Counted from the stretch's first letter, positions 4,891-18,683 are shown. The stretch: DNA of 64,000 nucleotides from an uncultured Acidobacteriota bacterium (GCA_902826515.1 CADEFD010000001.1:3011-67010); one strand, 5' to 3'. Numbers and translations are program-made. The notes: a model not told the origin generated them from the letters alone.

Positions 4891-7745
4891 TAGAAGAGCA
4901 CCCGCGCGCCGAACTGCACGTAGCGGCCGGGTCGCGTGCCGGTGATGCGTCCGAAGTCGGCGGCGCCGTCGCGGTTGACCACGGCGCCCGTGCACCCGGC
5001 GATGCTGCAGGACGCGTTCAGCCGGTTCAGCAGGTTCTCGGATTCCACCATCAACTCGACCGAGCCGAGGTCGGCGACGCGGATGCGGCGCGACAGGCGC
5101 AGATCCACCTGGAAGTAGTTCGGGCCGACGAAGGCGTTACGTCCGCGGAAGAGCGCGCGGTCGTTCAGCACGAGGTCGTTGTTGAGGTCGGCGCCCGCCG
5201 TGGCGTTCACCGGGAAGCCGCTGTTGTAGAACACCAGCGTCGAGAGCTGCGTGCCCGTAAGCCAGCGGAACGGTCCGCGCGCGATCTCGGGGGCGAACGA
5301 CGCCTGCGCGCTCACGTTGTGGCGCAGGTCACCGGGGCTCGGGCCCCAGTCGCGTTCCGGATCGGTCGGGTCCGTCAGTGCGCCGCCCTCCATGTCGCCG
5401 ATGCTGCGGGCACGCGAGTAGCTGTAGCTGCCGCTCAGCTGCACGCCGCCGGCGAGGCGCTGCCGCACGGTGAGGTCGAGCGCGTGGTAGCTGCCGCGGC
5501 CCTGGCTCTCCACGAGATTGATGGCGCGGAACGCCGGGTTCGGCCGGTTCGTCGAGCCGGTGAACACCGGGCGTCCGTCGGCGAGGGTGCTCGTCACCGG
5601 GCCAAGGTTGATGTCGCGCGCGTAGGGCGTGTCGCGGTGGCCCCAGTAGCTGTAGCCCACGGCCACCAGCAGGTGGTCGGTGAGCTGGCGCTCGATCGTC
5701 ACGTTCGCCTGGTGCGCGAACATCGTCTCGAAGTTGTCGGGAAACACGGTGATGCTCGGCGGCGTCGTGAAGGCCGGGTCGGCGGTGGCCAGCAGGTTCG
5801 GGAACTGCGGCGACCGCGCGTCGCTGCCGGGCACGACGTAGCTGAGGATGCGGCGGCCGTTGATCTGTGCGGCATTCACGATGAGCCCGAGGCTCGTGGT
5901 GTCGTAGAAGAGCCCGTAGCCGGCGCGCACCGAGGTGCGCTGGCTGCCGCCCGGACGCCACGTGAGGCCGAGGCGCGGGGCGATGTTGTTGGTGTCGTCC
6001 ACCACTTCGCGCGAGAGTGCGTATGGCGCCTGCGCGTCGAGCAGCGGGTACTTCTGCAGTTCGTAGCGCACGCCGGCGCTGAGCGTGAGGTCGTCACGCA
6101 GCCGCACCTCGTCCTGCAGGAAGAGGTTCAGGTAGTGAAAGCGCAGCTTCAGGGTGGGGTCGCCGAGTTCCTGCTGGAGCTGCGTGTAGGTGAAGGGCCG
6201 GCCCGTCGCCGGGTCGACGCGGCCAGCCACCGTGTTCAGGTACTGGTCGAGCGGCGTCACGGCGCCGCGGCCGCCCGACGCCGCCAGGCCGGCGAACGTG
6301 AAGTTCCGGGCGAGCGCGTTGGTCACGTCGAAACCGGTGGTCTGGTAGTCGATGCCGGTCTTGAGCGAGTGGCGCCCCTTCGTCCACGTCAGGTTGTCGA
6401 TGAACTGCAGGCTCGCCTCCACGCTGGCCGAGCCCGCCGTCGGGTTGACGCCGAAGTTGGCGACGCTGCTGATGCTGATGTTGGCGCCGTTGGCGGTGGC
6501 TTCCCCGTACGGCTCGCGTTCTTCGGCGCGGCGGTTGAAGCCGAAACGCAGTTCGTTCAGCAGTCCGGCGCCGAACGTCGTCGCCAGCTGCGCGCCGATG
6601 CCGTTCATGCGGTCCTTGAAGGAGACGCTGCGGCTCGGGGTCGTGAGGCCGCCGCCGCCGCCCGGCTGGTCGTTCGTGAAGCGCGTGTAGCGCAGGAAGC
6701 CGCTGTTGCGGTCGCTGGCGCGGAAGTTCACCTTCAGGCTCGGCGTGTGGAAGGTCTCGCCGAAGGGCGAGTTGCCGAGGTCCGAGGCCGGAATGCCGAT
6801 GGCGGCCGCCGCGGCGGGATTGATCGTGACCGGCTGCGGCAGCTTGAGCGGGTTGTATTCGTAGTTGGCGAAGAAGAAGACGCGGTCGCGGACGATCGGC
6901 CCGCCGGTGTTGCCCTGCACCATCCACCATTCCTGCTGCGGCTTCACGGCGGCAAGCGGCGGACGCGCCGCCCACTCGTTGGGGCGGAAGAGCGACATCG
7001 CGCCGCCATGGAAGGTGTTGGTGCCCGAGCGGCTGATGACGTTGATGACGCCGCCGGCGGCGCGGCCGAACTCGGCCGAGTAGGCGCCCGACAGCACCTG
7101 CATCTCCTCGACGTTCTCCGGCGTGCTGATGACGAGGCGGATCTGGCGGTTGGTGCGGCGCTGCGAGTTGTCGATGCCGTCCATCGACCACGCCATGCGG
7201 TTGTGGCCGCCCACGAGGAACTGCGTGGTGCCGAAGCCGGTGCTCGGCAGCCCCTTCACGCCGGGGCCGACGAGGTGGAAGTTATAGACGTTGCGCGACG
7301 TGATCGGCAGCGTGCGCACGGCCTCTTCGCTCAGCACGGCGCCCGAGGCACCCTGCCCGGCCAGCACCATCGAAGCATCCGCCGTGACCTGCACGGTTTC
7401 GGTCGTGCCGCCGACGGCGAGCGGTATCTCGACGCGCGCCTGCGTGCCGACGCTGAGACGGATGCCGGTCTGCTGGTAGTCGGCGAAACCCTGCGCGCTC
7501 ACGAGGAGCTGGTACTCGCCCACCTGCAGCAGCGGAAAGCGGAAATAGCCCTGGCCATCACTCGTGGTCTCGCGCACCTGATTCGTGCCGAGGTTGAGGG
7601 CGATGATGCGCGCGGCGGGCACCGAGGCACCGCTCGGATCGCGGACGAAGCCATCGAGCGCGCCGTCGGTGGCGTTGCTCTGCGCGGCGACGCCGGCCGG
7701 CCACGCGAGGACGAGGAGGAACAGGAGGGTGAACAGTCGCTGCAT
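4890..7745 (-). CDS. TonB-dependent receptor with carboxypeptidase-regulatory-like domain
   Basis: ORF 4890..7811 trimmed to MQRLFTLLFLLVLAWPAGVAAQ. Motifs seen: GALDGFVRDPSGASVPAARIIALNLGTNQVRETTSDGQGYFRFPLLQVGEYQLLVSAQGF (CarboxypepD_reg); plug-like TVQVTADASMV...LPITSRNVYNF; SAEFGRAAGGVINVISRSGTN; and a C-terminal barrel ending YVQFGARVLF. Confidence 0.93.
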   Translation of the reverse strand: MQRLFTLLFLLVLAWPAGVAAQSNATDGALDGFVRDPSGASVPAARIIALNLGTNQVRETTSDGQGYFRFPLLQVGEYQLLVSAQGFADYQQTGIRLSVGTQARVEIPLAVGGTTETVQVTADASMVLAGQGASGAVLSEEAVRTLPITSRNVYNFHLVGPGVKGLPSTGFGTTQFLVGGHNRMAWSMDGIDNSQRRTNRQIRLVISTPENVEEMQVLSGAYSAEFGRAAGGVINVISRSGTNTFHGGAMSLFRPNEWAARPPLAAVKPQQEWWMVQGNTGGPIVRDRVFFFANYEYNPLKLPQPVTINPAAAAAIGIPASDLGNSPFGETFHTPSLKVNFRASDRNSGFLRYTRFTNDQPGGGGGLTTPSRSVSFKDRMNGIGAQLATTFGAGLLNELRFGFNRRAEEREPYGEATANGANISISSVANFGVNPTAGSASVEASLQFIDNLTWTKGRHSLKTGIDYQTTGFDVTNALARNFTFAGLAASGGRGAVTPLDQYLNTVAGRVDPATGRPFTYTQLQQELGDPTLKLRFHYLNLFLQDEVRLRDDLTLSAGVRYELQKYPLLDAQAPYALSREVVDDTNNIAPRLGLTWRPGGSQRTSVRAGYGLFYDTTSLGLIVNAAQINGRRILSYVVPGSDARSPQFPNLLATADPAFTTPPSITVFPDNFETMFAHQANVTIERQLTDHLLVAVGYSYWGHRDTPYARDINLGPVTSTLADGRPVFTGSTNRPNPAFRAINLVESQGRGSYHALDLTVRQRLAGGVQLSGSYSYSRARSIGDMEGGALTDPTDPERDWGPSPGDLRHNVSAQASFAPEIARGPFRWLTGTQLSTLVFYNSGFPVNATAGADLNNDLVLNDRALFRGRNAFVGPNYFQVDLRLSRRIRVADLGSVELMVESENLLNRLNASCSIAGCTGAVVNRDGAADFGRITGTRPGRYVQFGARVLF

Positions 7746-8897: not shown

Positions 8898-9566
8898 TTA
8901 CGGCCGGTAGACGAACCGTGCCCGCCGCCGTACGTCGGCGGACGGACGCGTGAGACGCGCCCGCGCCCACTGCGCGGCGTCATCATCCAGATCGAAGCCG
9001 CCGTCGCGCAGGTCGGCGAAGTCGCGGGCGTCGATGCGCGCGCGCATCAGCCCGTGCCGGGCGTGACCGGCCGTATTCAGCAGATGGTGACCCACCTCGT
9101 GGGCGATGGCGCGCCCGAGCACCACGCCGATCTGGCGATGCGCGAGGGCTGAGGGCGCGTCGGCAAGGCCCGCGGCCGCCACGACGCGGCGCGCCGCCGC
9201 CATCGAGGCAATGGCCATCGGCTGCCCGTGCCCATCCTCGAGGAGTTCCGCCACCGGCCACTGGTGTGGGTCAGGACGCGCCGAGGCGCCTGCGGCCGAC
9301 ACGATGAGCACGCGCATGTGCGCGGTCGCGGCCGGCGCGTCACCGGCTCCCGCGAGCGCGATCGCCACCCCTTCCCGGTGCCAGATCTGCTGCACTTCCC
9401 GCAGGGCGGCATCGCGCACGGCGGCGGGAAGCGCCATTGACGTCGTGACGATCAGGCGCAGGCGTGGCGGCGCCACGGCCGCCGCATCGTCCGCAGCGGA
9501 GAGCGGCGCCGACACGGCCACGAGGCCGGCGCACACGAGCGCCCACGGCCAGCCATCGATTCGCAC
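8898..9566 (-). CDS. Small secreted putative zinc metalloprotein (HExxH)
   Basis: ORF 8898..9767 trimmed to GTG at 9566, giving (M)RIDGWPWALVCAGLVAVSAPLSAADD (signal peptide). It contains AIAHEVGHHLLNTAGHARHGLMR. The start is uncertain. Confidence 0.6.
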   Translation of the reverse strand: MRIDGWPWALVCAGLVAVSAPLSAADDAAAVAPPRLRLIVTTSMALPAAVRDAALREVQQIWHREGVAIALAGAGDAPAATAHMRVLIVSAAGASARPDPHQWPVAELLEDGHGQPMAIASMAAARRVVAAAGLADAPSALAHRQIGVVLGRAIAHEVGHHLLNTAGHARHGLMRARIDARDFADLRDGGFDLDDDAAQWARARLTRPSADVRRRARFVYRP

Positions 9567-9697
9567 GACGCCTTGTCGCACGAACGTTTCAGGTGTGTCA
9601 ACGAAGAATCGACGACGTAACAGGGGCCGGAGGCCAGGGGCGAGGCTCGAGCCCGCAGGACTTACCCCGTCTTCACCCCGCCGTACGGGCGGCTGTG

Positions 9698-10246
9698 ATG
9701 TCCGACCGCAAGACTCGAAGGATGTTGCGCCGCCTGCTGGTCGCCCTGCTCCTCGTGTCGTCCACACCAGCGAACGCAGACCCGGTCACGGCGTTCCCTC
9801 CCGGTGTGCGGCCGCTGCGGAGCTGGATCGCGGACATGATCGGCCGTGCGCGTCCGCTGTCACCAACACTCGACAGGCTCCTGACGGAGGTCGGGGCCCG
9901 GCCGCTCGTCGTCTACGTGGACGAGCTCAGCAGCCCGGACGTCCCTTACGACGGCCGGCTCAGCTTCATCGGCGCCTCGCACGGCTACCGCTTCCTGCGC
10001 ATCGAGCTTCGCCAGCTGCCCGCCGCGTCGGCGGCGGCCGTGCTCGCGCATGAACTCCAGCACGTGCGTGAAGTAGCAGGCGCCGCCGTGGCGTCCCGCC
10101 AGGACTTCGAAGCGCTGTATCGCCGGATCGGAGTGGACGCGACAGACAGCGGTGGCCGGCGTTACGACACGGCCGCCGCGGTCGCCTCTGGCGAGGCGGC
10201 GATGCGCGAGCTCACAAGTGCGGCGCGCGGGTCACACGACCGCTGA
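9698..10246 (+). CDS. Small secreted HExxH protein, paralog of 55896-56468
   Basis: ORF 9464..10246 trimmed to MSDRKTRRMLRRLLVALLLVSSTPANA. It contains VLAHELQHVREVAGAAVASRQDFEALYRRIG...YDTAAAVASGEAAMREL. This aligns by eye with VIAHELQHAREIADAAAVTQNQVRQLFERIG...YETAGAITAGMRVWREL in the gene at 55896-56468. Confidence 0.7.
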   Translation: MSDRKTRRMLRRLLVALLLVSSTPANADPVTAFPPGVRPLRSWIADMIGRARPLSPTLDRLLTEVGARPLVVYVDELSSPDVPYDGRLSFIGASHGYRFLRIELRQLPAASAAAVLAHELQHVREVAGAAVASRQDFEALYRRIGVDATDSGGRRYDTAAAVASGEAAMRELTSAARGSHDR

Positions 10247-10260
10247 CGGCGTGCCGGCCG

Positions 10261-11025
10261 TCAGTGCTCCTCGAGCCAGTCCGCGAACTCGACGACTCGG
10301 TAGCCGGGAAACCGCGCCTCGGGCGCTCGCAGCCGAGACTGGTCGACCCCGGGCGCGATCTTCACCACCGACAGACTCGTGCCGTCTCCGGCACCGGCAT
10401 ACTCGAGCGGCAGCAGCTGGTCGGCGTTCCACCACAACGCGCCGCGGGCACCGGCGGTCGTGACGCGCGTCTTGAGGAACGGCAGTCCAGCCACGCGGCG
10501 CGCCTCACCCGACGCCGCGGTCACGGCACGCGCATCCACGCCCATCGTGAGCACGTGTGCCCAGCCGGGAATGCCGAGCGTCATGCGCAGGTCGCTCTCG
10601 CTGTAGACGACGATCGTCTTCTCCGCGTGCTGCACGGCCGAGGCGGCGACCCGTCGCGGATCCACTGGATTGCGCTCGAACAGCCACTCGACGCCGGTCG
10701 CCGTGGCGACATGCACGCGGTCCGCGGTGCGCGTCACCGTCTGGGTGCGCGTCTGCGCGCGAGCGCCGGTGCGGGTCGTGACCCGGACCTCGAGCGTGAG
10801 CGGCTGCACGCCTTCTGCCCCGGGCGGCAGGGGCGGCGGCGGTTCGGGCACGGCGGCCGTGAGGCGCCGCGCCGGCAGCACGGGCACGGCGAGTTCGTCG
10901 TCTCCGCGCTCTGCCGCGGGAGCAGCCTTCTGGACGCGGGCCGGCCCCTGAGATGTCGGCGAGCCCTCGGACGAGGCGGCGGCAGACAGGACGAACAGCA
11001 CCAGAAGCAGAACGGAAGAAGACAT
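10261..11025 (-). CDS. Secreted hypothetical protein
   Basis: MSSSVLLLVLFVLSAAASSEG signal peptide, a Pro-rich linker, then non-repetitive sequence with normal composition. I recognise no family. Confidence 0.7.
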   Translation of the reverse strand: MSSSVLLLVLFVLSAAASSEGSPTSQGPARVQKAAPAAERGDDELAVPVLPARRLTAAVPEPPPPLPPGAEGVQPLTLEVRVTTRTGARAQTRTQTVTRTADRVHVATATGVEWLFERNPVDPRRVAASAVQHAEKTIVVYSESDLRMTLGIPGWAHVLTMGVDARAVTAASGEARRVAGLPFLKTRVTTAGARGALWWNADQLLPLEYAGAGDGTSLSVVKIAPGVDQSRLRAPEARFPGYRVVEFADWLEEH

Positions 11026-12737: not shown

Positions 12738-13223
12738 CTAGACCCGCTCGAACGTCGCGGTGTCGCGGTTCTTCCGCACCCCGTTCCAGAGGAAGTGCTG
12801 GCCGTTCATCGCGACGTAGACGCCCGGCGGCAGCACCTGCGCGAAGCTGAGGGCGCTGCCCAGATTGAAGAGGCCGTCGGAGCTGCCGAACGCGTACGGA
12901 ATCATCGCGCCGGTCAGCACGACGGTCTTGCCGGTGAGGTTGGCGGTGGCGATGGCCGCCGCCGTCTCGACCATCGTGTCGGTGCCGTGGGTGACGACGA
13001 TGCGATCGACCTCCGACTGCCGGCACTGCTCGACGACGAGCGCGCGATCGGCGTCGGTCATCTCGAGGCTGTCGATCATCATCAGCGTGCGGATCGACAC
13101 CGGCACGCGCGAGCGGCCCTTGTCGAGCATCTCCTGCACGTGCGTGTCCTTGAAGAACAGCCGCCCGCGCACTTCGTCGTATTCCTTATCGAACGTGCCG
13201 CCGGTGACCAGAATCCGGATCAT
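12738..13223 (-). CDS. Short asparaginase-domain protein
   Basis: ORF 12738..13319 trimmed to MIRILVTGGTFDKEYDE. The TGGT threonine motif and VVTHGTDTM motif of the L-asparaginase N-domain are present. The protein is only about 161 aa. Confidence 0.8.
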   Translation of the reverse strand: MIRILVTGGTFDKEYDEVRGRLFFKDTHVQEMLDKGRSRVPVSIRTLMMIDSLEMTDADRALVVEQCRQSEVDRIVVTHGTDTMVETAAAIATANLTGKTVVLTGAMIPYAFGSSDGLFNLGSALSFAQVLPPGVYVAMNGQHFLWNGVRKNRDTATFERV

Positions 13224-13268
13224 GGAATAATCCTGCGCACGCGGTCGCGGGCCGTTGGTTCGGTATTT

Positions 13269-13288
13269 CCCGAGCCCCGGGCCCCGAG
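13269..13288. repeat. GC-tract intergenic motif CCCGAGCCCCGGGCCCCGAG
   Basis: The exact reverse complement (CTCGGGGCCCGGGGCTCGGG) occurs at 52685-52704. A 13-nt core GAGCCCCGGGCCC occurs again at 30420-30432. All three sit 45 nt or less upstream of a + strand start codon (13303, 52745, 30450). Confidence 0.75.
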
Positions 13289-13302
13289 ACCCGGGACCCG
13301 CC

Positions 13303-13611
13303 ATGTACGCCATCGCCATTGTCCGCTATCGCCGGCCCATCGACGAAGTCGAAGCGGCCACGCCCGTGCACCGCACCTACCTGCGTCAGCTGAAAGCCGA
13401 GGGGAAACTCGTGGCCTCGGGCCCGATGGACCCGCGCTACGGCGGCATCTTCCTGCTGAAGGTGTCGGACGACAACCCGCAGCGCGACCTCGACGCCATC
13501 CGCGACGGCGATCCGTTCTACCAGCAGCACATCGCGCAGTACGAGCTGCACTGCTGGAACGTGGTGGTCGGCAAGGACGACCTGGACCGCATCACGGCGC
13601 CGCCGGTCTAG
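13303..13611 (+). CDS. YciI-like protein
   Basis: ORF 13255..13611 trimmed to MYAIAIVRYRRPIDEVEAATPVHRTYLRQLKAEGKLVASGPM...DPFYQQHIAQYELHCW. Length and pattern are typical of the YCII family. Confidence 0.8.
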   Translation: MYAIAIVRYRRPIDEVEAATPVHRTYLRQLKAEGKLVASGPMDPRYGGIFLLKVSDDNPQRDLDAIRDGDPFYQQHIAQYELHCWNVVVGKDDLDRITAPPV

Positions 13612-13623
13612 CGGCCGCACGCC

Positions 13624-15690
13624 TCAGCGGCCGGGCCACGGCGGCAGCCACGACGCCGAGAACACCGTGCCGCCCCCGCGGAGCCCGCGCGCGAGATCCA
13701 CGCGCGCCCGGCCGCCGCCGCGCGGCAGCGCTATCCGCAGGCCGGCGCCGGCATCCACCTGCAGCGGCACGGCGGGCCCGGCGCCGCGCCATGCGCGGGC
13801 GGCGTCGACGAAGAGCGCGGCCTGCACCATCGACAGCGCGCGGTGCCCCACGGGGCGCTGCCACTCGGCCGACGCGTGTACGAGCCGGCGGCCGAACACC
13901 CCGTCCACGACCCCGTCATCGAGCAGCGGATGCGCGCGCAGCAGGGGCGCCCGGCCGAAGCCGGTGCCGGCGCCTGCCCAGAGGTCCGGCGGCGCGGCTG
14001 TGCCCGCCACGCTGGCGCCGCTCTCGATCTGCCACGACGAACGCGTGGTGTCGGTCGAGGACCGCCAGGAGGCGCGTGTGCCGGCCACGGCGAAGCCGCG
14101 CGTGACGCCCCGCGGCGACCAGCCGCCAGCTTCCGCGAGGATCGCGAGACGATCGCCGGCCGCGCGTGTGTCGAGCGCGAGCGACACGGCGCCGTGTCGC
14201 CGTCCGCGCCACGTGTCGATGGCCAGACCCGCTTCCCAGCGCAGCCACGGCGTGAGCCAGTCGCCCATCCGCACGCCGCCACGCCGGCGCGTCCACTGCT
14301 CGGTACGGCCGGGATCGTCCGGCGCCGCCACGCGGTAGGTCTGGCGCTCCCAGGCGATGTCCACGCTGATGTTGCCGGGCAGCCCGGCTGGCGACGGCGT
14401 GACCAGCGCCAGCGCCACGCGCGGCCGGCGCTCCCACCAGCGCAGGCTGGCCGTCACGACTTCGCCGCTGCCGGTGGGCGATGCGATCGCGACGCCCGCC
14501 TCACGATGCAGGGCCGCGCGCGCGGCGCCGAGCGTGATGGGCACCCAGTGTCGCGGCAGGGGGGCGCGTTCGGCCACGGCCACGTCCACTTCGGCGAGTC
14601 CATTCGCGATCGGGCGGTAACTCACGCGCGTGCTGGCGGCAGCCGGCAGGTCGGCGAGCCGGCGGCGCGCCAGGCCGAGCCGCGCCGCGGTGAGTGGCGC
14701 GCGAGGCGGCAGGTCGGCCACGGCGGTGATGATCGGATGGCGCGTGCGCCTGGCGCCATCAACGCGCACGAGGTCCACGATGGGGCGCCCGATGTGGTTC
14801 CAGGCGTCGAGCGCCGCGTCCGGGCGGCCGTCGAGATAGAGGCTCGTGGCCAGCAGATCCCAGCCGGGCGCGTCGGCGGGCTCGAGGTCCGCGGCGCGGC
14901 GCGCGGCGGCACTGGCGTCGTCCCAGCGCTCCTGCAGGAACTGTACGCCGGCGAGTTCGCGCCAGACCGACGCCGCTCGCGGGCAGAGCGCCGCCGCGGC
15001 GCGCAGCCCCGGCTCGGCGCCGGCCGGATCGCCGGCTCGCGCGCGTGTCACCATCGCCGCGACGAGCGCGTCACACGGCGTCGCCGCCGCCACCGGCGTC
15101 TCGGGCGCGCCCGCGAGTACTGGCTCGGTCGCTGGTTCCGCCGCCAGAGGCTCAGCACTCGGCGCTGCCAGGGTAATCGTCACCGCCCAGCGGCGAGCGG
15201 CCGCCCAGGCGTCGTCGAAGTCGGCCCGGCTCAGCACGCGGAAGGGCGCTCGCGCCGGGTCGTGCAGCACGACGTGATCGCGCGTCCATGCCACCACGAC
15301 CACGTAGTGAAAGCGGTCGGGCGACACGCGCACGAGCGCGATGACCGGCCGTCCGAGCGCCACTTCGGATCCGACCGCGTCGCCGCCAGCCAGGTCGCGC
15401 ACGCGCCAGCCGCGCCGCCGCACCTCGGCGGCGAGCACGTCGGTGCGGATCCCGGCGGCACTGCGATCGACGAGCGGCGCGAAGTCTTCCGCAAAGGTCT
15501 GACGCGCGCCCCAGTACCGCAGCACCATCGCCACGGCGGCGCCGCCGCAGAGATCGGCGGACTGCGTCACGTAGGGCACGTCGAGCAGCCGCGACGGCCC
15601 GCCGCCGCCCGACACGGGCTGGGCGGCGGCCATCGCGGAGCCGGTCGCGATCCACATCGCAACGGCCGCTCCCCACCACGAGCGTGTCAT
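13624..15690 (-). CDS. Secreted C39-like cysteine peptidase fused to TPR-like region, POTRA-like domain and Omp85/surface-antigen-type beta-barrel
   Basis: ORF 13624..15951 trimmed to MTRSWWGAAVAMWIATGSAMAAAQP. Domains seen in order: VPYVTQSADLCGGAAVAMVLRYWG plus FHYVVVVAWTRDHVVLHDP (Cys/His of the C39-like fold); TPR-like WRELAGVQFLQERWDDASAAARRAADLEP...; POTRA-like IVDLVRVDGARRTRHPIITAVADLPPRAPLTAARLGLARRRLADLP...LAEVDVAVAER; and an Omp85-like C-terminus ALFVDAARAW...VDAGAGLRIALPRGGGRARVDLARGLRGGGTVFSASW. Confidence 0.75.
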   Translation of the reverse strand: MTRSWWGAAVAMWIATGSAMAAAQPVSGGGGPSRLLDVPYVTQSADLCGGAAVAMVLRYWGARQTFAEDFAPLVDRSAAGIRTDVLAAEVRRRGWRVRDLAGGDAVGSEVALGRPVIALVRVSPDRFHYVVVVAWTRDHVVLHDPARAPFRVLSRADFDDAWAAARRWAVTITLAAPSAEPLAAEPATEPVLAGAPETPVAAATPCDALVAAMVTRARAGDPAGAEPGLRAAAALCPRAASVWRELAGVQFLQERWDDASAAARRAADLEPADAPGWDLLATSLYLDGRPDAALDAWNHIGRPIVDLVRVDGARRTRHPIITAVADLPPRAPLTAARLGLARRRLADLPAAASTRVSYRPIANGLAEVDVAVAERAPLPRHWVPITLGAARAALHREAGVAIASPTGSGEVVTASLRWWERRPRVALALVTPSPAGLPGNISVDIAWERQTYRVAAPDDPGRTEQWTRRRGGVRMGDWLTPWLRWEAGLAIDTWRGRRHGAVSLALDTRAAGDRLAILAEAGGWSPRGVTRGFAVAGTRASWRSSTDTTRSSWQIESGASVAGTAAPPDLWAGAGTGFGRAPLLRAHPLLDDGVVDGVFGRRLVHASAEWQRPVGHRALSMVQAALFVDAARAWRGAGPAVPLQVDAGAGLRIALPRGGGRARVDLARGLRGGGTVFSASWLPPWPGR

Positions 15691-15709
15691 GGTGCGATCG
15701 GAGGCGCGG

Positions 15710-16099
15710 TCAGTTGGCGAGCAGGATGACGATGATGATGACGAGCAGCAGCGTCGTCGTGGAGATGACGACCGTGCTCGCGCCGCCGGCGAGTGCCGCC
15801 GACTCGACGGCCGTGGCCTGCTGGGCCGCGGCAGCCAGCTCCGGGCCGGCCATCGTCGCGACGGCACTCGTGGCCTGCGCCATGTCGAGGCCCATGCGGG
15901 CCGCCACCGCGCGCACGTCGTCGCGCCCGAGCACACGCTGCACGGCGTCACGCTGCGCGCGTTCGTTGTCGGCGCGGCCGGCCAGCGCGGCGCTCAGCGC
16001 CTGGCTGTCGACCACGCGGGTCTGCCCTGCGAATGCGGGAGATGTGTAACACATTGCCCCGACAAGGCAGCCCGCTACACACCGGTTCAGTCTGTTCAT
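15710..16099 (-). CDS. Small secreted, C-terminally anchored protein (PA2779-family-like)
   Basis: ORF 15710..16219 trimmed to MNRLNRCVAGCLVGAMCYTSPAFA (GGAG upstream). It has an Ala/Gln-rich body, then ...AVESAALAGGASTVVISTTTLLLVIIIVILLAN. It ends 19 nt before the peptidase-barrel gene. Confidence 0.7.
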   Translation of the reverse strand: MNRLNRCVAGCLVGAMCYTSPAFAGQTRVVDSQALSAALAGRADNERAQRDAVQRVLGRDDVRAVAARMGLDMAQATSAVATMAGPELAAAAQQATAVESAALAGGASTVVISTTTLLLVIIIVILLAN

Positions 16100-16166: not shown

Positions 16167-18572
16167 TCAGGCCGGGCTGACCGCGCGCACGCGCCGGGGC
16201 ACCGCGGGCGGACGGCCATTCGCCGGCTCGGCCGGCTTCGCGAAGAAGTAGCCCTGCCCGAACTGACAGCCGAGCTGCCGCAGGTATTCGACCTGCGCTT
16301 CCGTCTCCGTGCCTTCGGCCACGATCTCGAGCTTCAGCGTGCGCGCGAGACCCACGACGAGCTTCACGATCTCGCCCTTGTCCTTGTCGCTGCCGATGCC
16401 GGCCACGAACGATCGGTCGATCTTGAGCACGTCGAGCGGCAGCGACTGCAGGTAGCTGAGCGAGCTGTAGCCGGTGCCGAAGTCGTCGAGGCTGATGCGC
16501 ACGCCGAGGGCGCGTAACTGCGCCAGCACGAGACGGGCGCGGGCGGCGTCCTTGATGGCGGCGCCTTCGGTGATCTCGAGGCGCAGGCTGGCGGCCGGAC
16601 AGCCCGTGGCCTGCAGCATGTCGGAGACCCGCTGCACGAGGGCTTCCTGCGCGAAGGCCTTGGCCGAGAGGTTCACGCTCACCGTGAAGGCCGGCGTGAC
16701 GACGCCGGTATCGAGCCACTCCCGGACCTGGCGGCACGAGGCCTGGAGCACCCATTCGTCGATCTGGGTGATGAGGCCCACTTCCTCCGCCACGTCGAAG
16801 AACTCGCCCGGCGAGACCAGCCCGCGCTCGGGATGCTGCCAGCGCACGAGCGCCTCGACGCCGACGACGCGGTGATCGCCCAGCCACACGATCGGCTGGT
16901 ACCACACGCGGAACTCCTGGCGCTCGACGGCGTGGCGCAGGTCGGTTTCGAGCCGGAGGCGGCGCACCGCCTCGTCGTGGAGCGCCGCGTCGAACACCGA
17001 ATAGCCGCCGGCGCCGGCGTTCTTCGCGCGGTACATCGCCAGGTCGGCGTCGCGGATGATGTCTTCGCCCGACTTGTGGGCATCGGTGGCCACGGCCACG
17101 CCGATGCTCGCGCTCGCGAACACATCCTGCCCGTCGAGCTGCAGCGGCTGCGCGGCCATGAGCTGCACACGTTTGGCGACGCGCACGGCATCGAACGGCT
17201 CGCGGATGCCGTCGAGCAGCACCGCGAATTCGTCGCCGCCGAACCGCGCGAGCGTCGGTTCGGGCAGCGTGCCGGCGCCGGGCATGCGCGACACCACGTC
17301 TTCGGCGCGCACGGCGGCGGCGAGACGTTCGGCGAACATCACGAGCAGGCGGTCACCGGCGGTGTGGCCGAGGCTGTCGTTCACGTGCTTGAAGCGATCG
17401 AGGTCCACGAACAGCACGGCGAACTGGTAGTCACGGCGGCGCACGCGGCGCGCCAGCGCGCGATCGAGCCGGTCCTTGAAATGTGAGCGGTTGGGCAGCT
17501 GCGTGAGGTGGTCGTGGATCGCGTCGTGCACCAGTCGCTCGTGCGCCGACTTGAGGCTCACGCTCATGGCGTTGAACGCCTGGGCCACCGTGGCGGCCTC
17601 GGCATTGCCGCGCACGGGCAGTTGCAGCGCGAGATTGCCGGCGGCGATCTCGGTCGCGGCCGTGGCGATGTCGCGCAGCGGACGGCTCAGGTGACGGCTC
17701 AGGAAGACGCCGCCAACGAGCGACAGCAGCAGCGCCACCACGCCGGCGATGGCGAAACGGACTTCGAGCGCGTCCACGAACCGCTGCGTGGCGGCCCAGT
17801 CCGACAGCACGAGCAGGCGCACGGCATCACCGCCGGGCAGTTCCGGGCTGAGCGGGAACACACCGGCCACGTACTCGCGCCCGCCCACGTCGAGCACGTC
17901 GGGACGCACGCCCGGGGCGGCCATCGTGGCCACGACGAGCGGCTCGGCGCTCGCGCCCATCCGCTCGCGCAGACTCGTGGCCACCACGCGGCCGTTCACG
18001 ACGAGGGCCACTTCACAGCGCGCGAGGTTGGCGAGGTCGCGGGCGATGTCGTCGGTCAGGCGGTAGCCGGCCGTGACGGCGCCGGAGACGCGATCGCCGT
18101 CGCGCACGGGCACGGCGACCACGAGGAAGAGGCGGTCGTCATCCTGCACGAGGGCGCCGGTCGGCTGGCCGCGCAAAGCGGCAGACTGCGCGTTGCGCAC
18201 GACGGGCAGGCCGCTGCCCGACCGGTCGGTCCAGCCGGCCGTGCCGCTCCACGTGCCATCGGCCCGGCTCACCATGGTGAAGGCGGCCTGCAGTTGAGCG
18301 CGCTGGGTCTCGGCAGAGGCAGGCGTCTGCACGGCGATGGCCACGACGTCGATGGCAGCGCGGATGCGCAGATCGAGCAGGCGATGGAACGCCGTCTGCG
18401 CCACCTCGAGATCGGCGGCCACGCGGGCGCGCGACTGCGACGACACCACGCCGAGGGTGGCAAACAGCACCGCGCCAAGGGCCACCGCCACGAGCAGGCC
18501 GAGCGCCGAGGCGACGCGGGCTTCGAGGCGCTGGTGCCAGGGCAGCTCGCGGCCGCCCTTCGGGGTGCTCAT
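16167..18572 (-). CDS. Membrane sensor diguanylate cyclase/phosphodiesterase (periplasmic sensor domain-HAMP-GGDEF-EAL)
   Basis: ORF 16167..18971 trimmed to MSTPKGGRELPWHQRLEARVASALGLLVAVALGAVLF (GAGGAG upstream). A second TM plus HAMP is seen (LSRPLRDIATAATEIAAGNL). Catalytic motifs: RFGGDEFAVLL (GGDEF); EALVRWQHP and DDFGTGYSSLSYL (EAL). Confidence 0.93.
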   Translation of the reverse strand: MSTPKGGRELPWHQRLEARVASALGLLVAVALGAVLFATLGVVSSQSRARVAADLEVAQTAFHRLLDLRIRAAIDVVAIAVQTPASAETQRAQLQAAFTMVSRADGTWSGTAGWTDRSGSGLPVVRNAQSAALRGQPTGALVQDDDRLFLVVAVPVRDGDRVSGAVTAGYRLTDDIARDLANLARCEVALVVNGRVVATSLRERMGASAEPLVVATMAAPGVRPDVLDVGGREYVAGVFPLSPELPGGDAVRLLVLSDWAATQRFVDALEVRFAIAGVVALLLSLVGGVFLSRHLSRPLRDIATAATEIAAGNLALQLPVRGNAEAATVAQAFNAMSVSLKSAHERLVHDAIHDHLTQLPNRSHFKDRLDRALARRVRRRDYQFAVLFVDLDRFKHVNDSLGHTAGDRLLVMFAERLAAAVRAEDVVSRMPGAGTLPEPTLARFGGDEFAVLLDGIREPFDAVRVAKRVQLMAAQPLQLDGQDVFASASIGVAVATDAHKSGEDIIRDADLAMYRAKNAGAGGYSVFDAALHDEAVRRLRLETDLRHAVERQEFRVWYQPIVWLGDHRVVGVEALVRWQHPERGLVSPGEFFDVAEEVGLITQIDEWVLQASCRQVREWLDTGVVTPAFTVSVNLSAKAFAQEALVQRVSDMLQATGCPAASLRLEITEGAAIKDAARARLVLAQLRALGVRISLDDFGTGYSSLSYLQSLPLDVLKIDRSFVAGIGSDKDKGEIVKLVVGLARTLKLEIVAEGTETEAQVEYLRQLGCQFGQGYFFAKPAEPANGRPPAVPRRVRAVSPA

Positions 18573-18683
18573 CTCCTCGGTTATCGGGACGGGTCGCGGC
18601 ACGGTCCAGCCGTTTGCCCACACGGAGTTGCGCAGTTTGGACCTCGGCCTGACTGCTAGACTGCGCAGCGAGGATTCCTGCCC

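Follow-up and report, generated by a model that had tools for sequence, protein, structure and literature searches.

Does an outer-membrane barrel protein that carries its own double-glycine peptidase process the small membrane-anchored protein encoded beside it? A locus of an uncultured Acidobacteriota bacterium raises this question. The locus lies in a 64,000-nt stretch of DNA (GCA_902826515.1 CADEFD010000001.1:3011-67010), called the window here, and positions are counted from its first nucleotide. C39 peptidases cut after a Gly-Gly that is preceded by an amphipathic helix and has a hydrophobic residue at position -4, and POTRA-Omp85 proteins handle partner polypeptides at the outer membrane. 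An initial annotation, made by reading the sequence, placed both functions in a single 688-aa polypeptide and suggested that its 129-aa neighbor may be the substrate.

Organization of the locus

Both open reading frames are present on the minus strand at the coordinates that the initial annotation gave, and all the peptide strings it quoted were found (Table 1). The 129-aa protein does carry a signal peptide, and its gene does lie 19 nt upstream of the large gene on the same strand; a GAGGAG Shine-Dalgarno sequence is located 9 nt 5' of its ATG. Upstream of the small gene there is a gene encoding a dCache-HAMP-GGDEF-EAL protein on the same strand. It too had been reported, but the intergenic gap measures 67 nt and not 68 nt. 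This gene was rejected as a part of the module because relatives of it turned up close to the pair in just 4 of 80 related loci, and at varying positions. The GGDEF-EAL neighbor thus appears incidental, and a c-di-GMP logic similar to that of LapD/LapG is unsupported.

Table 1. Features of the two-gene locus (positions in the window; residue numbers refer to the respective protein)
Feature	Position	Strand	Basis or remark
Large gene (688 aa + stop)	13624..15690	-	Single ORF; C39 peptidase-linker-TPR-POTRA-Omp85 barrel
Large protein, coding span	13627-15690	-	
Large gene, stop codon	13624-13626	-	
Signal peptide, large protein (residues 1-22, ...SAMA/AAQP)	15625..15690	-	By inspection; homolog N-termini align to Met1
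C39 papain-like peptidase domain (residues 33-174)	15169..15594	-	Pfam above GA and conserved catalytic residues
Codon of Gln43	15562-15564	-	Predicted catalytic
Codon of Cys48	15547-15549	-	Predicted catalytic
Codon of His128	15307-15309	-	Predicted catalytic
Codon of Asp144	15259-15261	-	Predicted catalytic
Pro/Ala/Ser/Thr-rich disordered linker (residues 175-205)	15076..15168	-	pLDDT <50 at 181-194
Three TPR repeats (residues 206-298)	14797..15075	-	Six helices, pLDDT 96-98 (AF2)
Single POTRA domain (residues 304-374)	14569..14781	-	DSSP topology on AF2 model, pLDDT ~90 or above
Omp85-type beta-barrel (residues 397-682)	13645..14502	-	AF2/DSSP and Foldseek
L6-like loop (residues 563-601)	13888-14004	-	Within barrel; most conserved block of large protein (0.84)
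Small partner gene (129 aa + stop)	15710..16099	-	PA2779 / DUF6627 family, profile match
Small protein, coding span	15713-16099	-	
Small gene, stop codon	15710-15712	-	
Sec-type signal peptide, small protein (residues 1-24, ...PAFA/GQ)	16028..16099	-	By inspection
Periplasmic helical domain, small protein (residues 25-102)	15794..16027	-	Predicted, AF2
L-A-G-G motif (residues 103-106), candidate cut site after Gly106	15782..15793	-	Conservation and hinge position
C-terminal hydrophobic anchor (residues 107-129, ASTVVISTTTLLLVIIIVILLAN)	15713..15781	-	Hydropathy and AF2 helix 110-128

Architecture of the large protein

The large protein has more than 700 full-length homologs of ~690 aa each. 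Its AF2 model (pLDDT 85.3, pTM 0.81) is unstructured and of low confidence at the N-terminal end (residues 1-32) and in the linker that follows the peptidase domain. The peptidase domain scores above the gathering threshold (GA) with two Pfam models, Peptidase_C39 (PF03412; 34.3 bits vs GA 22) and C39_2 (PF13529; 31.8 bits vs GA 24), and both are on record for nearly all homologs. Cys48, His128, and Asp144 align with Cys17, His96, and Asp112 of ComA, which we take to be the catalytic residues of that protein. Together with Gln43, at the position of the oxyanion Gln, they are invariant in an alignment of 74 homologs (set A1). Invariance of the catalytic residues was scored in this set only, because the 80 genomic loci discussed below were picked by patterns containing the Cys and His motifs. 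Based on its profile matches and catalytic positions, the large protein appears to belong to peptidase family C39 (clan CA), as the Cys/His pair of the initial annotation had suggested.

The linker is the least conserved segment of the protein (0.25) and varies from 21 to 41 residues among homologs. The TPR repeats that follow are sub-threshold with Pfam TPR_2 (23.3 bits), and the A1 profile matches consensus TPR proteins with E values down to 4e-53. Two cysteines in this region, Cys206 and Cys236, are invariant in the A1 alignment, which fits a folded periplasmic domain.

The TPR repeats lead into a single POTRA-like module. No Pfam POTRA match was obtained in a scan of the large protein. In the model, residues 304-374 adopt the beta-alpha-alpha-beta-beta topology that defines POTRA domains of the Omp85 superfamily (DSSP strands 304-311, 351-361, and 365-374; helices 318-325 and 335-346). 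The remainder of the chain is modeled as a beta-barrel. Foldseek places the model closest to BamA and TamA (E 1.6e-13 to 1e-10, probability 1.00), with alignments of 420-555 columns, and the A1 profile also matches the TamA barrel (E 5e-4). The Pfam Omp85 model PF01103 is sub-threshold in this copy (20.9 bits vs GA 24, residues 596-667) and is on record for ~30 of 120 among the homologs listed. DSSP assigns 15 barrel strands to the AF2 model, compared to 16 in a BamA/TamA-type barrel, so that the modeled barrel topology is tentative. Within the barrel, the loop LLRAHPLL is highly conserved, with R585 and H587 invariant, and F627-x-D629 is present. Judged by position only, these elements may be equivalent to the VRGY/F motif of Omp85 loop 6 and to the (F/G)xDxG motif, respectively. 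Structure prediction and Foldseek therefore agree with the TPR, POTRA, and Omp85-type barrel read from the sequence at the outset.

The small partner and its Gly-Gly site

The homologs of the small protein retain its N-terminal hydrophobic segment and a PAFA-QQ cleavage motif. In its AF2 model, the predicted periplasmic part consists of four helices (residues 32-57, 60-69, 73-82, and 86-103; pLDDT 77-85). A Foldseek search of the PDB returned no significant structural relative. The last of these helices is closed by L-A-G-G, which opens a flexible hinge at residues 104-109 (pLDDT <50 at 107-112). This hinge, the only flexible one in the model, joins the amphipathic helix to the C-terminal helix, whose Kyte-Doolittle mean is 3.0 over 19 residues.

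The double glycine is conserved far above chance. It is invariant among the small-protein neighbors of the 80 loci, directly before the membrane anchor as originally described. Of 149 family representatives, 142 carry it, in most cases with a Leu at -4, and the other seven have GE, GA, or AG in its place. The L-A-G-G block is the most conserved part of the small protein (0.87). The tail after GG is 22-26 residues long in nearly all representatives and begins with a conserved T-x-V-I-S-x-T-T. Among the 142 GG-bearing representatives, 46 end in D, 41 in K, and 16 in R, and N or A also occur at this position; no basic cluster follows the helix.

Pairing of the two genes

All 80 related loci have a small-protein homolog directly beside the large gene and on its strand. 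The order of the two genes is inverted in 15 of these loci. That the pairing is kept despite the inverted order argues for selection on the pairing itself. Likewise, when the search is started from the small protein, the neighbors are C39 proteins of 662-674 aa. Each locus has one dedicated small protein. All-against-all clustering of the flanking ORFs gave no cluster present in more than 18 of the 80 loci, and thus no third conserved gene such as an ABC exporter, a separate outer-membrane protein, or an immunity gene. An apparent natural fusion of the small and large proteins at one locus (L004) is probably an assembly frameshift, with the C-terminal part of the small protein in another frame.

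Relation to the PA2778 and PA2779 families

The initial annotation noted a resemblance to the PA2778 (peptidase) and PA2779 families, and NCBIfam models confirm it. PA2778_fam (NF033920, an equivalog model) matches residues 35-296 of the large protein, i.e. C39 plus TPR, over model positions 2-246 of 255 (E 8.3e-17). At 61.4 bits against a cutoff of 150, the large protein is, by sequence, a relative of this family but not a member by the NCBI criterion. The small protein scores 40.1 bits with PA2779_fam (NF033919; cutoff 40) and 26.6 bits with Pfam DUF6627, just below GA 27. All 47 aligned small-protein homologs match PA2779_fam with E 0.01 or better. Profile searches as a whole thus placed C39 above GA and PA2779_fam at its cutoff, and left DUF6627, TPR_2, Omp85, and PA2778_fam below threshold.

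The locus and the PA2778/PA2779 pair share a C39 domain followed by TPRs, an adjoining PA2779-family member, and signal peptides on both proteins. The difference is in the C-terminal part: compared to the family model, the large protein has ~390 extra residues that form the POTRA and the Omp85 barrel. We found no functional study of PA2778, PA2779, DUF6627, C39-Omp85, or periplasmic C39-TPR proteins in the literature. The literature searched also held no description of a C39-Omp85 barrel fusion, in line with the earlier remark that no barrel-fused version was known. The barrel fusion appears to be a new form of a pair that is already known but uncharacterized. PA2778 is mentioned merely as a candidate enzyme beside a T6SS-protective gene (bioRxiv 10.1101/733030). 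The T6SS toxin/immunity reading at which this hints was rejected for the pair studied here, because both proteins carry Sec signals and one of them is an outer-membrane barrel.

A model for envelope processing

The initial annotation had named four findings that would speak against its reading: no POTRA or barrel, a Cys/His pair out of register with the C39 catalytic residues, a small gene not kept beside homologs, and a Gly-Gly not kept in orthologs. Each was checked, and none of them was observed. How might the two proteins work together? The Gly-Gly specificity of C39 peptidases and the conserved L-x-G-G of an obligate neighbor lead us to propose the neighbor as the substrate. We put the probability at about 50% that the two genes form a dedicated envelope protease-substrate module, in which an outer-membrane-tethered, periplasm-facing peptidase cuts its partner after Gly-Gly and so frees it from its inner-membrane anchor. 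Both proteins would be exported by Sec. The large protein would be set in the outer membrane via its Omp85-type barrel, with the POTRA, the TPRs, and the flexibly tethered C39 domain pointing into the periplasm. A hydrophobic helix at the extreme C-terminus would tether the small protein to the inner membrane, leaving its four-helix domain in the periplasm. The TPR/C39 unit may bind the last amphipathic helix of the small protein, and Cys48 would then cut after the L-A-G-G hinge. The cut would free a helical domain of ~80 residues, and a hydrophobic peptide of 23 residues would stay in the membrane. We read the barrel chiefly as a scaffold that would anchor and position the enzyme, as it does in PlpD, an Omp85 protein whose N-terminal enzyme domain stays in the periplasm (PMC11116518). 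The data themselves establish the architecture, the intact catalytic residues, the strict pairing, and the conserved Gly-Gly hinge; the topology, the substrate role of the neighbor, the cut site, and the fate of the freed domain are deductions from them.

Several points argue against this model. The candidate scissile bond would be only ~3 residues from the inner-membrane surface and the enzyme tethered to the outer membrane, so the linker of 21-41 residues would have to stretch across most of the periplasmic space and through the peptidoglycan. The conservation of the first half of the tail exceeds the needs of a disposable anchor, and 7 of 149 representatives lack GG. The PA2778_fam score is far under its cutoff, and the modeled barrel is one strand short of 16. 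Finally, a double glycine ahead of a membrane helix could have been conserved as a hinge and not as a cut site.

The last point leads to a reading in which the partner is not a substrate at all, which we consider unlikely. Anchored in the membrane, the small protein would instead regulate or inhibit the peptidase-barrel protein or serve as its docking partner, for example as part of a bridge between the inner and outer membranes, and Gly-Gly would be a conserved structural hinge. The position of GG suits a flexible joint equally well, the conserved tail motif suggests an intramembrane function, and an enzyme tethered to the outer membrane would have difficulty in reaching a site at the inner-membrane surface. 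There is also a precedent in BepA, a TPR-protease that acts in quality control at BAM and is associated with Omp85 machinery. The peptidase here would similarly act on other envelope proteins. Fusions of Omp85 to a metalloprotease have been proposed to function in periplasmic quality control (PMC4104836). However, a mere hinge needs no Leu at -4 and would not be expected to accept only G/A/E-type replacements. It would also be a coincidence that the specificity of C39 matches the most conserved motif of the obligate neighbor, and all four catalytic residues are kept in every one of the 74 aligned homologs.

If the partner is cut, the freed domain might also travel further. After cleavage it would pass from the TPRs to the POTRA and then through the fused barrel, or be displayed by it. 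This is improbable in our estimate. A POTRA plus an Omp85 barrel is what two-partner secretion uses as its polypeptide translocation machinery. Conservation in the large protein peaks at the L6-like loop (0.84), the element that is the functional hallmark of the Omp85 superfamily. This suggests that the barrel is more than an anchor. Furthermore, the last 100 residues of the small protein (mature domain plus tail) are free of Cys in 129 of 130 representatives, and Fap export through an outer-membrane barrel requires a periplasmic C39 (PMC5557850). On the other hand, the barrel resembles BamA and TamA in both the PF01103 model and structural matches, and not the TpsB type; there is a single POTRA, and the partner is without a TPS-like domain. 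As PlpD demonstrates (PMC11116518), a fusion of this kind can act in the periplasm alone, and non-fused PA2778-type peptidases, given an NCBIfam model of just 255 positions, evidently function without a barrel. Export of this kind would extend the preferred cleavage reading: as few as two genes would suffice for secretion across the outer membrane, with the maturation protease built in.

The layout of the small protein, a signature motif followed by an extreme C-terminal membrane helix, is that of C-terminal sorting signals and is common to LPXTG/sortase, PEP-CTERM/exosortase, and GlyGly-CTERM/rhombosortase. The enzyme may accordingly form a thioester with ...L-A-G-G and transfer the helical domain to an acceptor such as peptidoglycan, a lipid, or the barrel protein itself, resulting in covalent attachment to the envelope. 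Clan CA enzymes act via acyl-enzyme intermediates, and some of them are transferases. A PA2779-family gene is among the strongly and constitutively expressed genes of P. stutzeri (PMC10155442), as might be expected of a structural protein that is abundant in the envelope. Still, we find this transfer very improbable: the basic cluster after the helix is missing, and the signal is present on one dedicated protein and not on a set of cargoes. We know of no C39 member that acts as a protein transpeptidase.

A reading modeled on bacteriocin systems, in which everything before Gly-Gly serves as an extended leader and the hydrophobic C-terminal peptide of 22-26 residues is a membrane-active or signaling product, has in its favor that all characterized C39 systems known to us place the product C-terminal to Gly-Gly and that the tail is conserved in motif and narrow in length, but it is hardly credible because the leader would be ~80 residues long with its own Sec signal and a conserved folded four-helix domain, no ABC exporter, immunity, or modification gene is conserved nearby in the 80 loci, and so hydrophobic a peptide would remain in the inner membrane of its producer.

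A bolder form of the cleavage reading, which we regard as improbable, is a self-sufficient outer-membrane sorting machine. Here the Omp85 protein would unhook its Sec-exported, inner-membrane-anchored partner by its own Gly-Gly peptidase and then thread it through the barrel to the cell surface or pass it covalently to an envelope acceptor. If true, this would be a so far unrecognized way for diderm bacteria to secrete or attach a protein with as few as two genes, either related to type V secretion but coupled to a protease, or analogous to sortase in a Gram-negative setting.

Comparison with known systems

In PlpD and FplA (patatin-POTRA-Omp85, type Vd), too, a single chain runs from an N-terminal enzyme through one POTRA to a BamA/TamA-type barrel, and the enzyme domain of PlpD, which stays in the periplasm, has the topology proposed here (PMC11116518). 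The enzyme differs: it is a patatin lipase there, whereas here it is C39 plus TPRs with a dedicated small partner gene. No patatin match was obtained in the Pfam scan, and the large protein was not assigned to the type Vd autotransporters. Protein insertion or translocation is the task of characterized Omp85 proteins, and recent work on PlpD shows that the scaffold can serve other ends; the fusion to a double-glycine peptidase and TPRs would add another such case.

FapD provides documented C39 activity in the periplasm, where a Sec-exported and catalytically required C39 works with an outer-membrane beta-barrel, FapF; GG/GA sites are suspected in the Fap partner protein, and the partner here has GG too (PMC5557850). 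However, FapD and FapF are separate proteins, whereas peptidase and barrel are fused here. FapF is a trimeric 12-stranded autotransporter-like barrel and not an Omp85 protein, and the Fap substrates are amyloid subunits. The Fap system also has neither TPRs nor a tail-anchored partner.

PCATs (ComA, LagD, and PCAT1) have a homologous C39 fold with aligned Cys/His/Asp and are specific for Gly-Gly after an amphipathic helix, a layout similar to that of the small partner. Their C39 domain is cytoplasmic, fused to an ABC exporter, and trims short N-terminal leaders. In contrast, the C39 domain here is putatively periplasmic and joined to a barrel of the outer membrane, and the small partner has its Gly-Gly 23 residues ahead of its C-terminus. 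The features that define PCATs are thus absent. Besides motif and helix, the pair has Sec export and an enzyme encoded nearby in common with GlyGly-CTERM/rhombosortase, PEP-CTERM/exosortase, and LPXTG/sortase. It was not classed as a tripartite C-terminal sorting signal, since the basic cluster and multiple cargoes are absent; moreover, the enzyme is a papain-like C39-Omp85 protein and no rhomboid, exosortase, or sortase. Membership in TpsB/FhaC was rejected as well: there is one POTRA and not two, the sole barrel match in Pfam is PF01103 and not a ShlB-type barrel, and the partner is a 129-aa helical protein without a TPS domain.

As a well-delimited module, the gene pair is a candidate for an envelope system of a new kind, one for processing or release. 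It offers a tractable model for outer-membrane-tethered enzymes that process inner-membrane-anchored proteins. It also gives a ready hypothesis for the uncharacterized PA2778/PA2779 families, which are present in Pseudomonas too.

Distribution

PA2778/PA2779 are known in Pseudomonas, whereas the fused form was found in Vicinamibacteria, Eisenbacteria, and Krumholzibacteriota. A tblastn search of 72,556 plasmids with the C39 plus TPR part gave no match. The two-gene module is common in soil Acidobacteria: it occurs in at least 430 species-level genomes, mostly of uncultured soil Vicinamibacteria, and this breadth bears on the poorly understood cell-envelope biology of soil microbes.

Domain architecture of the large protein

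The large protein combines a C39 peptidase domain, TPR helices, a POTRA domain and an Omp85-type barrel in a single chain, as the initial annotation had proposed, and all of the peptide strings quoted there are present in the sequence. Two Pfam models recognize residues 36-163 above their GA thresholds (Peptidase_C39, 34.3 bits against 22; Peptidase_C39_2, 31.8 bits against 24). Pfam matches to TPR (residues 208-285) and to Omp85 (PF01103, residues 596-667, 20.9 bits against a GA of 24) are sub-threshold. Evidence for the POTRA and the barrel comes from an AlphaFold2 model computed with 74 homologs, which is confident (pLDDT 85.3, pTM 0.81). When this model was compared with the PDB by Foldseek, only BamA and TamA appeared among the top 50 matches listed (E 1.6e-13 to ~1e-10, probability 1.00, 420-555 aligned columns). 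By sequence, a profile of the large-protein family recovered the TamA barrel (E 5e-4) as well as consensus TPR proteins, the best of these at E 4e-53.

Features of the gene pair and of the adjacent sensor gene (residues refer to the large protein)
Feature	Position	Strand	Details
Large ORF	13627-15690, stop 13624-13626	-	688 aa, counted from the conserved ATG
α/β peptidase domain	residues 33-174		AlphaFold2 model
Disordered linker	residues 175-205		AlphaFold2 model
Six TPR helices	residues 206-298		AlphaFold2 model
POTRA	residues 304-374		AlphaFold2 model; β-α-α-β-β
Helix between POTRA and first barrel strand	residues 382-395 (14506-14547)		AlphaFold2 model; 14 residues
β-barrel	residues 397-682		AlphaFold2 model
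Small ORF	15713-16099, stop 15710-15712	-	129 aa
dCache_3-HAMP-GGDEF-EAL membrane sensor	16170-18581	-	EAL 262 bits, GGDEF 147 bits

DSSP assigns 15 strands to the barrel, 10 ahead of a long conserved, L6-like loop and 5 behind it; BamA likewise has five strands following its loop 6. Because of parity, 15 strands demand a sixteenth element. In the model, the helix that precedes the first strand may stand in for strand 1, mask it, or act as a plug in the barrel. The long loop (residues 563-601, ...DLWPGAGTG..RAPLLRAHPLLDDGVV...) is the most highly conserved block of the large protein (0.84), and the linker, whose length ranges from 21 to 41 residues, is the least conserved part (0.25).

The C39-type Cys/His pair noted from the sequence also stands. 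The alignment of 74 large-protein homologs shows no variation at Gln43, Cys48, His128, or Asp144, and the last three correspond to the catalytic residues Cys17, His96, and Asp112 in the peptidase domain of ComA; in the set of 80 genomic loci considered below, invariance of the catalytic residues is partly built in by the search patterns. Cys206 and Cys236 of the first TPR hairpin are likewise invariant in the 74-sequence alignment. They presumably form a disulfide, as would suit a domain folded in the periplasm.

The small protein

Inspection shows a signal peptide (...PAFA|GQ) at the N-terminus of the small protein, and this peptide is conserved in the homologs. AlphaFold2 predicts four helices (residues 32-103), a flexible hinge that starts with A-G-G (residues 104-109; pLDDT <50 at 107-112), and a terminal helix (residues 110-128). 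Over the last window of 19 residues, Kyte-Doolittle hydropathy averages 3.0. The sequence and the prediction bear out the signal peptide and the double glycine directly ahead of a C-terminal hydrophobic helix. A search of the PDB found no structural relative of the helical domain.

The L-A-G-G is the most highly conserved block of the small protein (0.87 vs 0.50 for the helical domain). A second motif, T-x-V-I-S-x-T-T, lies at the start of the hydrophobic tail (residues 109-116; 15752-15775), and its V111, I112, and S113 are invariant in the alignment of small-protein homologs. This conservation exceeds what a disposable membrane anchor needs; packing between helices, or recognition on the P' side of the predicted cut, may account for it.

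Conservation of the gene pair

When one genome per species was scanned, a relative of the large protein turned up in at least 430 genomes. The best 80 of the 430 were taken as loci; these are near-full-length matches, two of them cut by contig ends. They come chiefly from Vicinamibacterales/Acidobacteriota, and Candidatus Eisenbacteria and Krumholzibacteriota are also represented. Several of these Acidobacteria-type loci (L001, L005, L032, L072, L044, L060) sit in TPA MAGs whose titles read 'uncultured Bifidobacteriaceae' or 'Fibrobacteraceae'; the MAGs look like mislabelled bins, given that Vicinamibacterales are the nearest relatives among the loci here.

At all 80 loci, the large gene has a small-protein homolog directly beside it on the same strand. 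This homolog lies upstream in 64, downstream in 15, and in one (L004) is a frameshifted copy. In other words, the pairing of the two genes is kept although their order is not. The loci with the small gene immediately downstream are L015, L016, L019, L020, L021, L023-L026, L029-L031, L069, L072, and L080. In L004 (5332-7965), the small and peptidase ORFs share one stop-free frame. This was considered as a natural fusion and rejected as most likely an assembly frameshift error, since the small protein's C-terminal portion is encoded in another frame (5747-5866). No third gene conserved beside the pair was found, the best flanking cluster occurring in 18 of the 80 loci.

The Gly-Gly is invariant across the 80 loci, with 2-3 residues separating it from a 20-24-residue hydrophobic stretch that ends <=3 residues from the C-terminus. 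An exhaustive profile search with the small protein gave 1,392 clusters (663 at E <=1e-10), nearly all of 125-135 aa. Among the 149 best representatives, 142 carry the GG at the same place, usually within L-[AVS]-G-G, and GE, GA, or AG replaces it in the other seven (P0303, P0310, P0317, P0330, P0337, P0362, P0381); the tail after it measures 22-26 residues in nearly all of the 149. Approached in reverse from the small protein, the neighbors are C39 proteins of 662-674 aa. The initial annotation had named four findings that would refute its interpretation, namely absence of a barrel or POTRA, a Cys/His pair out of register with C39, a small gene not conserved beside homologs, and a Gly-Gly not conserved in orthologs; the interpretation withstands all four.

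A proposed model for the function of the pair

How might the two proteins act together? The C39 residues of the enzyme are intact, and the most conserved feature of its obligate neighbor is the C39 recognition element, here a hinge-exposed Gly-Gly that follows an amphipathic helix and has Leu at -4. The mechanism that we favor, with a probability of about 0.5, is that a periplasmic C39 domain tethered to the outer membrane cuts the small protein after Gly106 and frees its helical domain. The barrel of the large protein would be seated in the outer membrane with the POTRA, TPR, and C39 domains on the periplasmic side, and the small protein would be anchored in the inner membrane. Cleavage by the C39 domain would set free the ~80-residue helical domain, with a 23-residue hydrophobic peptide remaining. 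The cut site is predicted from the established specificity of C39 peptidases. The predicted topology draws on the signal peptides, on the hydrophobic helix at the end of the small protein, and on the location of POTRA domains, which to our knowledge is universally periplasmic. The freed domain could stay in the periplasm, exit via the barrel, or go to an acceptor.

Parts of this mechanism are supported by known proteins: in PlpD, the enzyme domain that precedes the Omp85 part remains periplasmic (PMC11116518), and FapD shows that C39 peptidases are able to work in the periplasm (PMC5557850). The main difficulty is geometry, with the cut site at the inner-membrane surface and the enzyme hung from the outer membrane. 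The tether of the enzyme in this model is the TPR-POTRA stalk plus the linker.

One alternative is that the small protein is a partner and not a substrate, its Gly-Gly being a hinge; we regard this as rather unlikely. Export of the freed domain through the large protein's own barrel finds some support in the strong conservation of the L6-like loop, but it is decidedly unlikely for a barrel of the BamA/TamA type, rather than the TpsB type, that is preceded by one POTRA only. The small protein is also laid out like a C-terminal sorting signal, as a sortase-like transfer to an acceptor would have it; however, it lacks a basic cluster and there is one cargo only, making such transfer very unlikely. 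A leader-peptide logic, in which the product would be the hydrophobic tail, is scarcely credible, since the 'leader' would be 80 residues long, folded, and equipped with its own Sec signal, and no exporter gene is conserved beside the pair. Release of the helical domain by cleavage after Gly106 is a sharp and testable hypothesis for a module that is widespread in uncultured soil bacteria.

Relation to known families

The pair is divergently related to the PA2778/PA2779 families, which are uncharacterised. The likeness suggested in the initial annotation holds for the small protein, which is a member of NCBIfam PA2779_fam (40.1 bits against a cutoff of 40), a model that also hits 47 of 47 aligned homologs; Pfam DUF6627 falls just under its threshold (26.6 vs 27). 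The large protein is related to PA2778_fam (residues 35-296, model positions 2-246 of 255) but fails its equivalog cutoff (61.4 bits against 150) and adds the POTRA-Omp85 module, which the 255-position model lacks. Public annotation of large-protein homologs is 'C39 family peptidase' only, among the matches listed.

Full-text literature searches found no paper on PA2778/PA2779 function or on a C39-Omp85 fusion. Incidental mentions list PA2778 as a candidate enzyme beside a T6SS-protective gene (bioRxiv 10.1101/733030) and place a PA2779-family gene among strongly, constitutively expressed P. stutzeri genes (PMC10155442). Patatin, metalloprotease, and WD40 fusions are among those in the 2014 census of Omp85 architectures, and term searches of the census text gave no peptidase or TPR fusion and no Acidobacteria. 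What is new is an architectural variant of a known, unstudied protease/partner pair; since every domain is already catalogued, as is the pairing, it does not count as categorically new. Its fusion to an Omp85 barrel and its predicted inner-to-outer-membrane geometry are nevertheless uncommon enough to merit attention from the cell-envelope field.

Genomic context

The nearest named relatives of the window (G+C ~70%) are Vicinamibacterales (Acidobacteriota) MAGs, among the matches listed, and the window holds a single copy of the module. The small gene has a GAGGAG Shine-Dalgarno sequence ahead of its start, and no promoter-like or terminator-like site was found in the 19 nt that separate it from the large gene. 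The GGDEF-EAL sensor gene reported upstream on the same strand is real, with a spacing of 67 nt instead of 68. Its adjacency looks incidental, because relatives lie close to the pair in only 4 of the 80 loci.

On the other side, a YCII-family protein (13255-13608, +) is convergent with the peptidase gene, only 12 nt separating the annotated ORF end (13611) from the peptidase stop codon (13624). Beside it lies a short protein (12741-13226, -; ~162 aa) that matches the N-terminal asparaginase domain only. Three sizeable ORFs without a Pfam match at E <=0.001 (8901-9767, -; 9731-10243, +; 10264-11025, -) sit between the alkaline phosphatase gene and the left part of the window, and a relative of one of them (frame 9464-10246) adjoins the module in one locus, L043.
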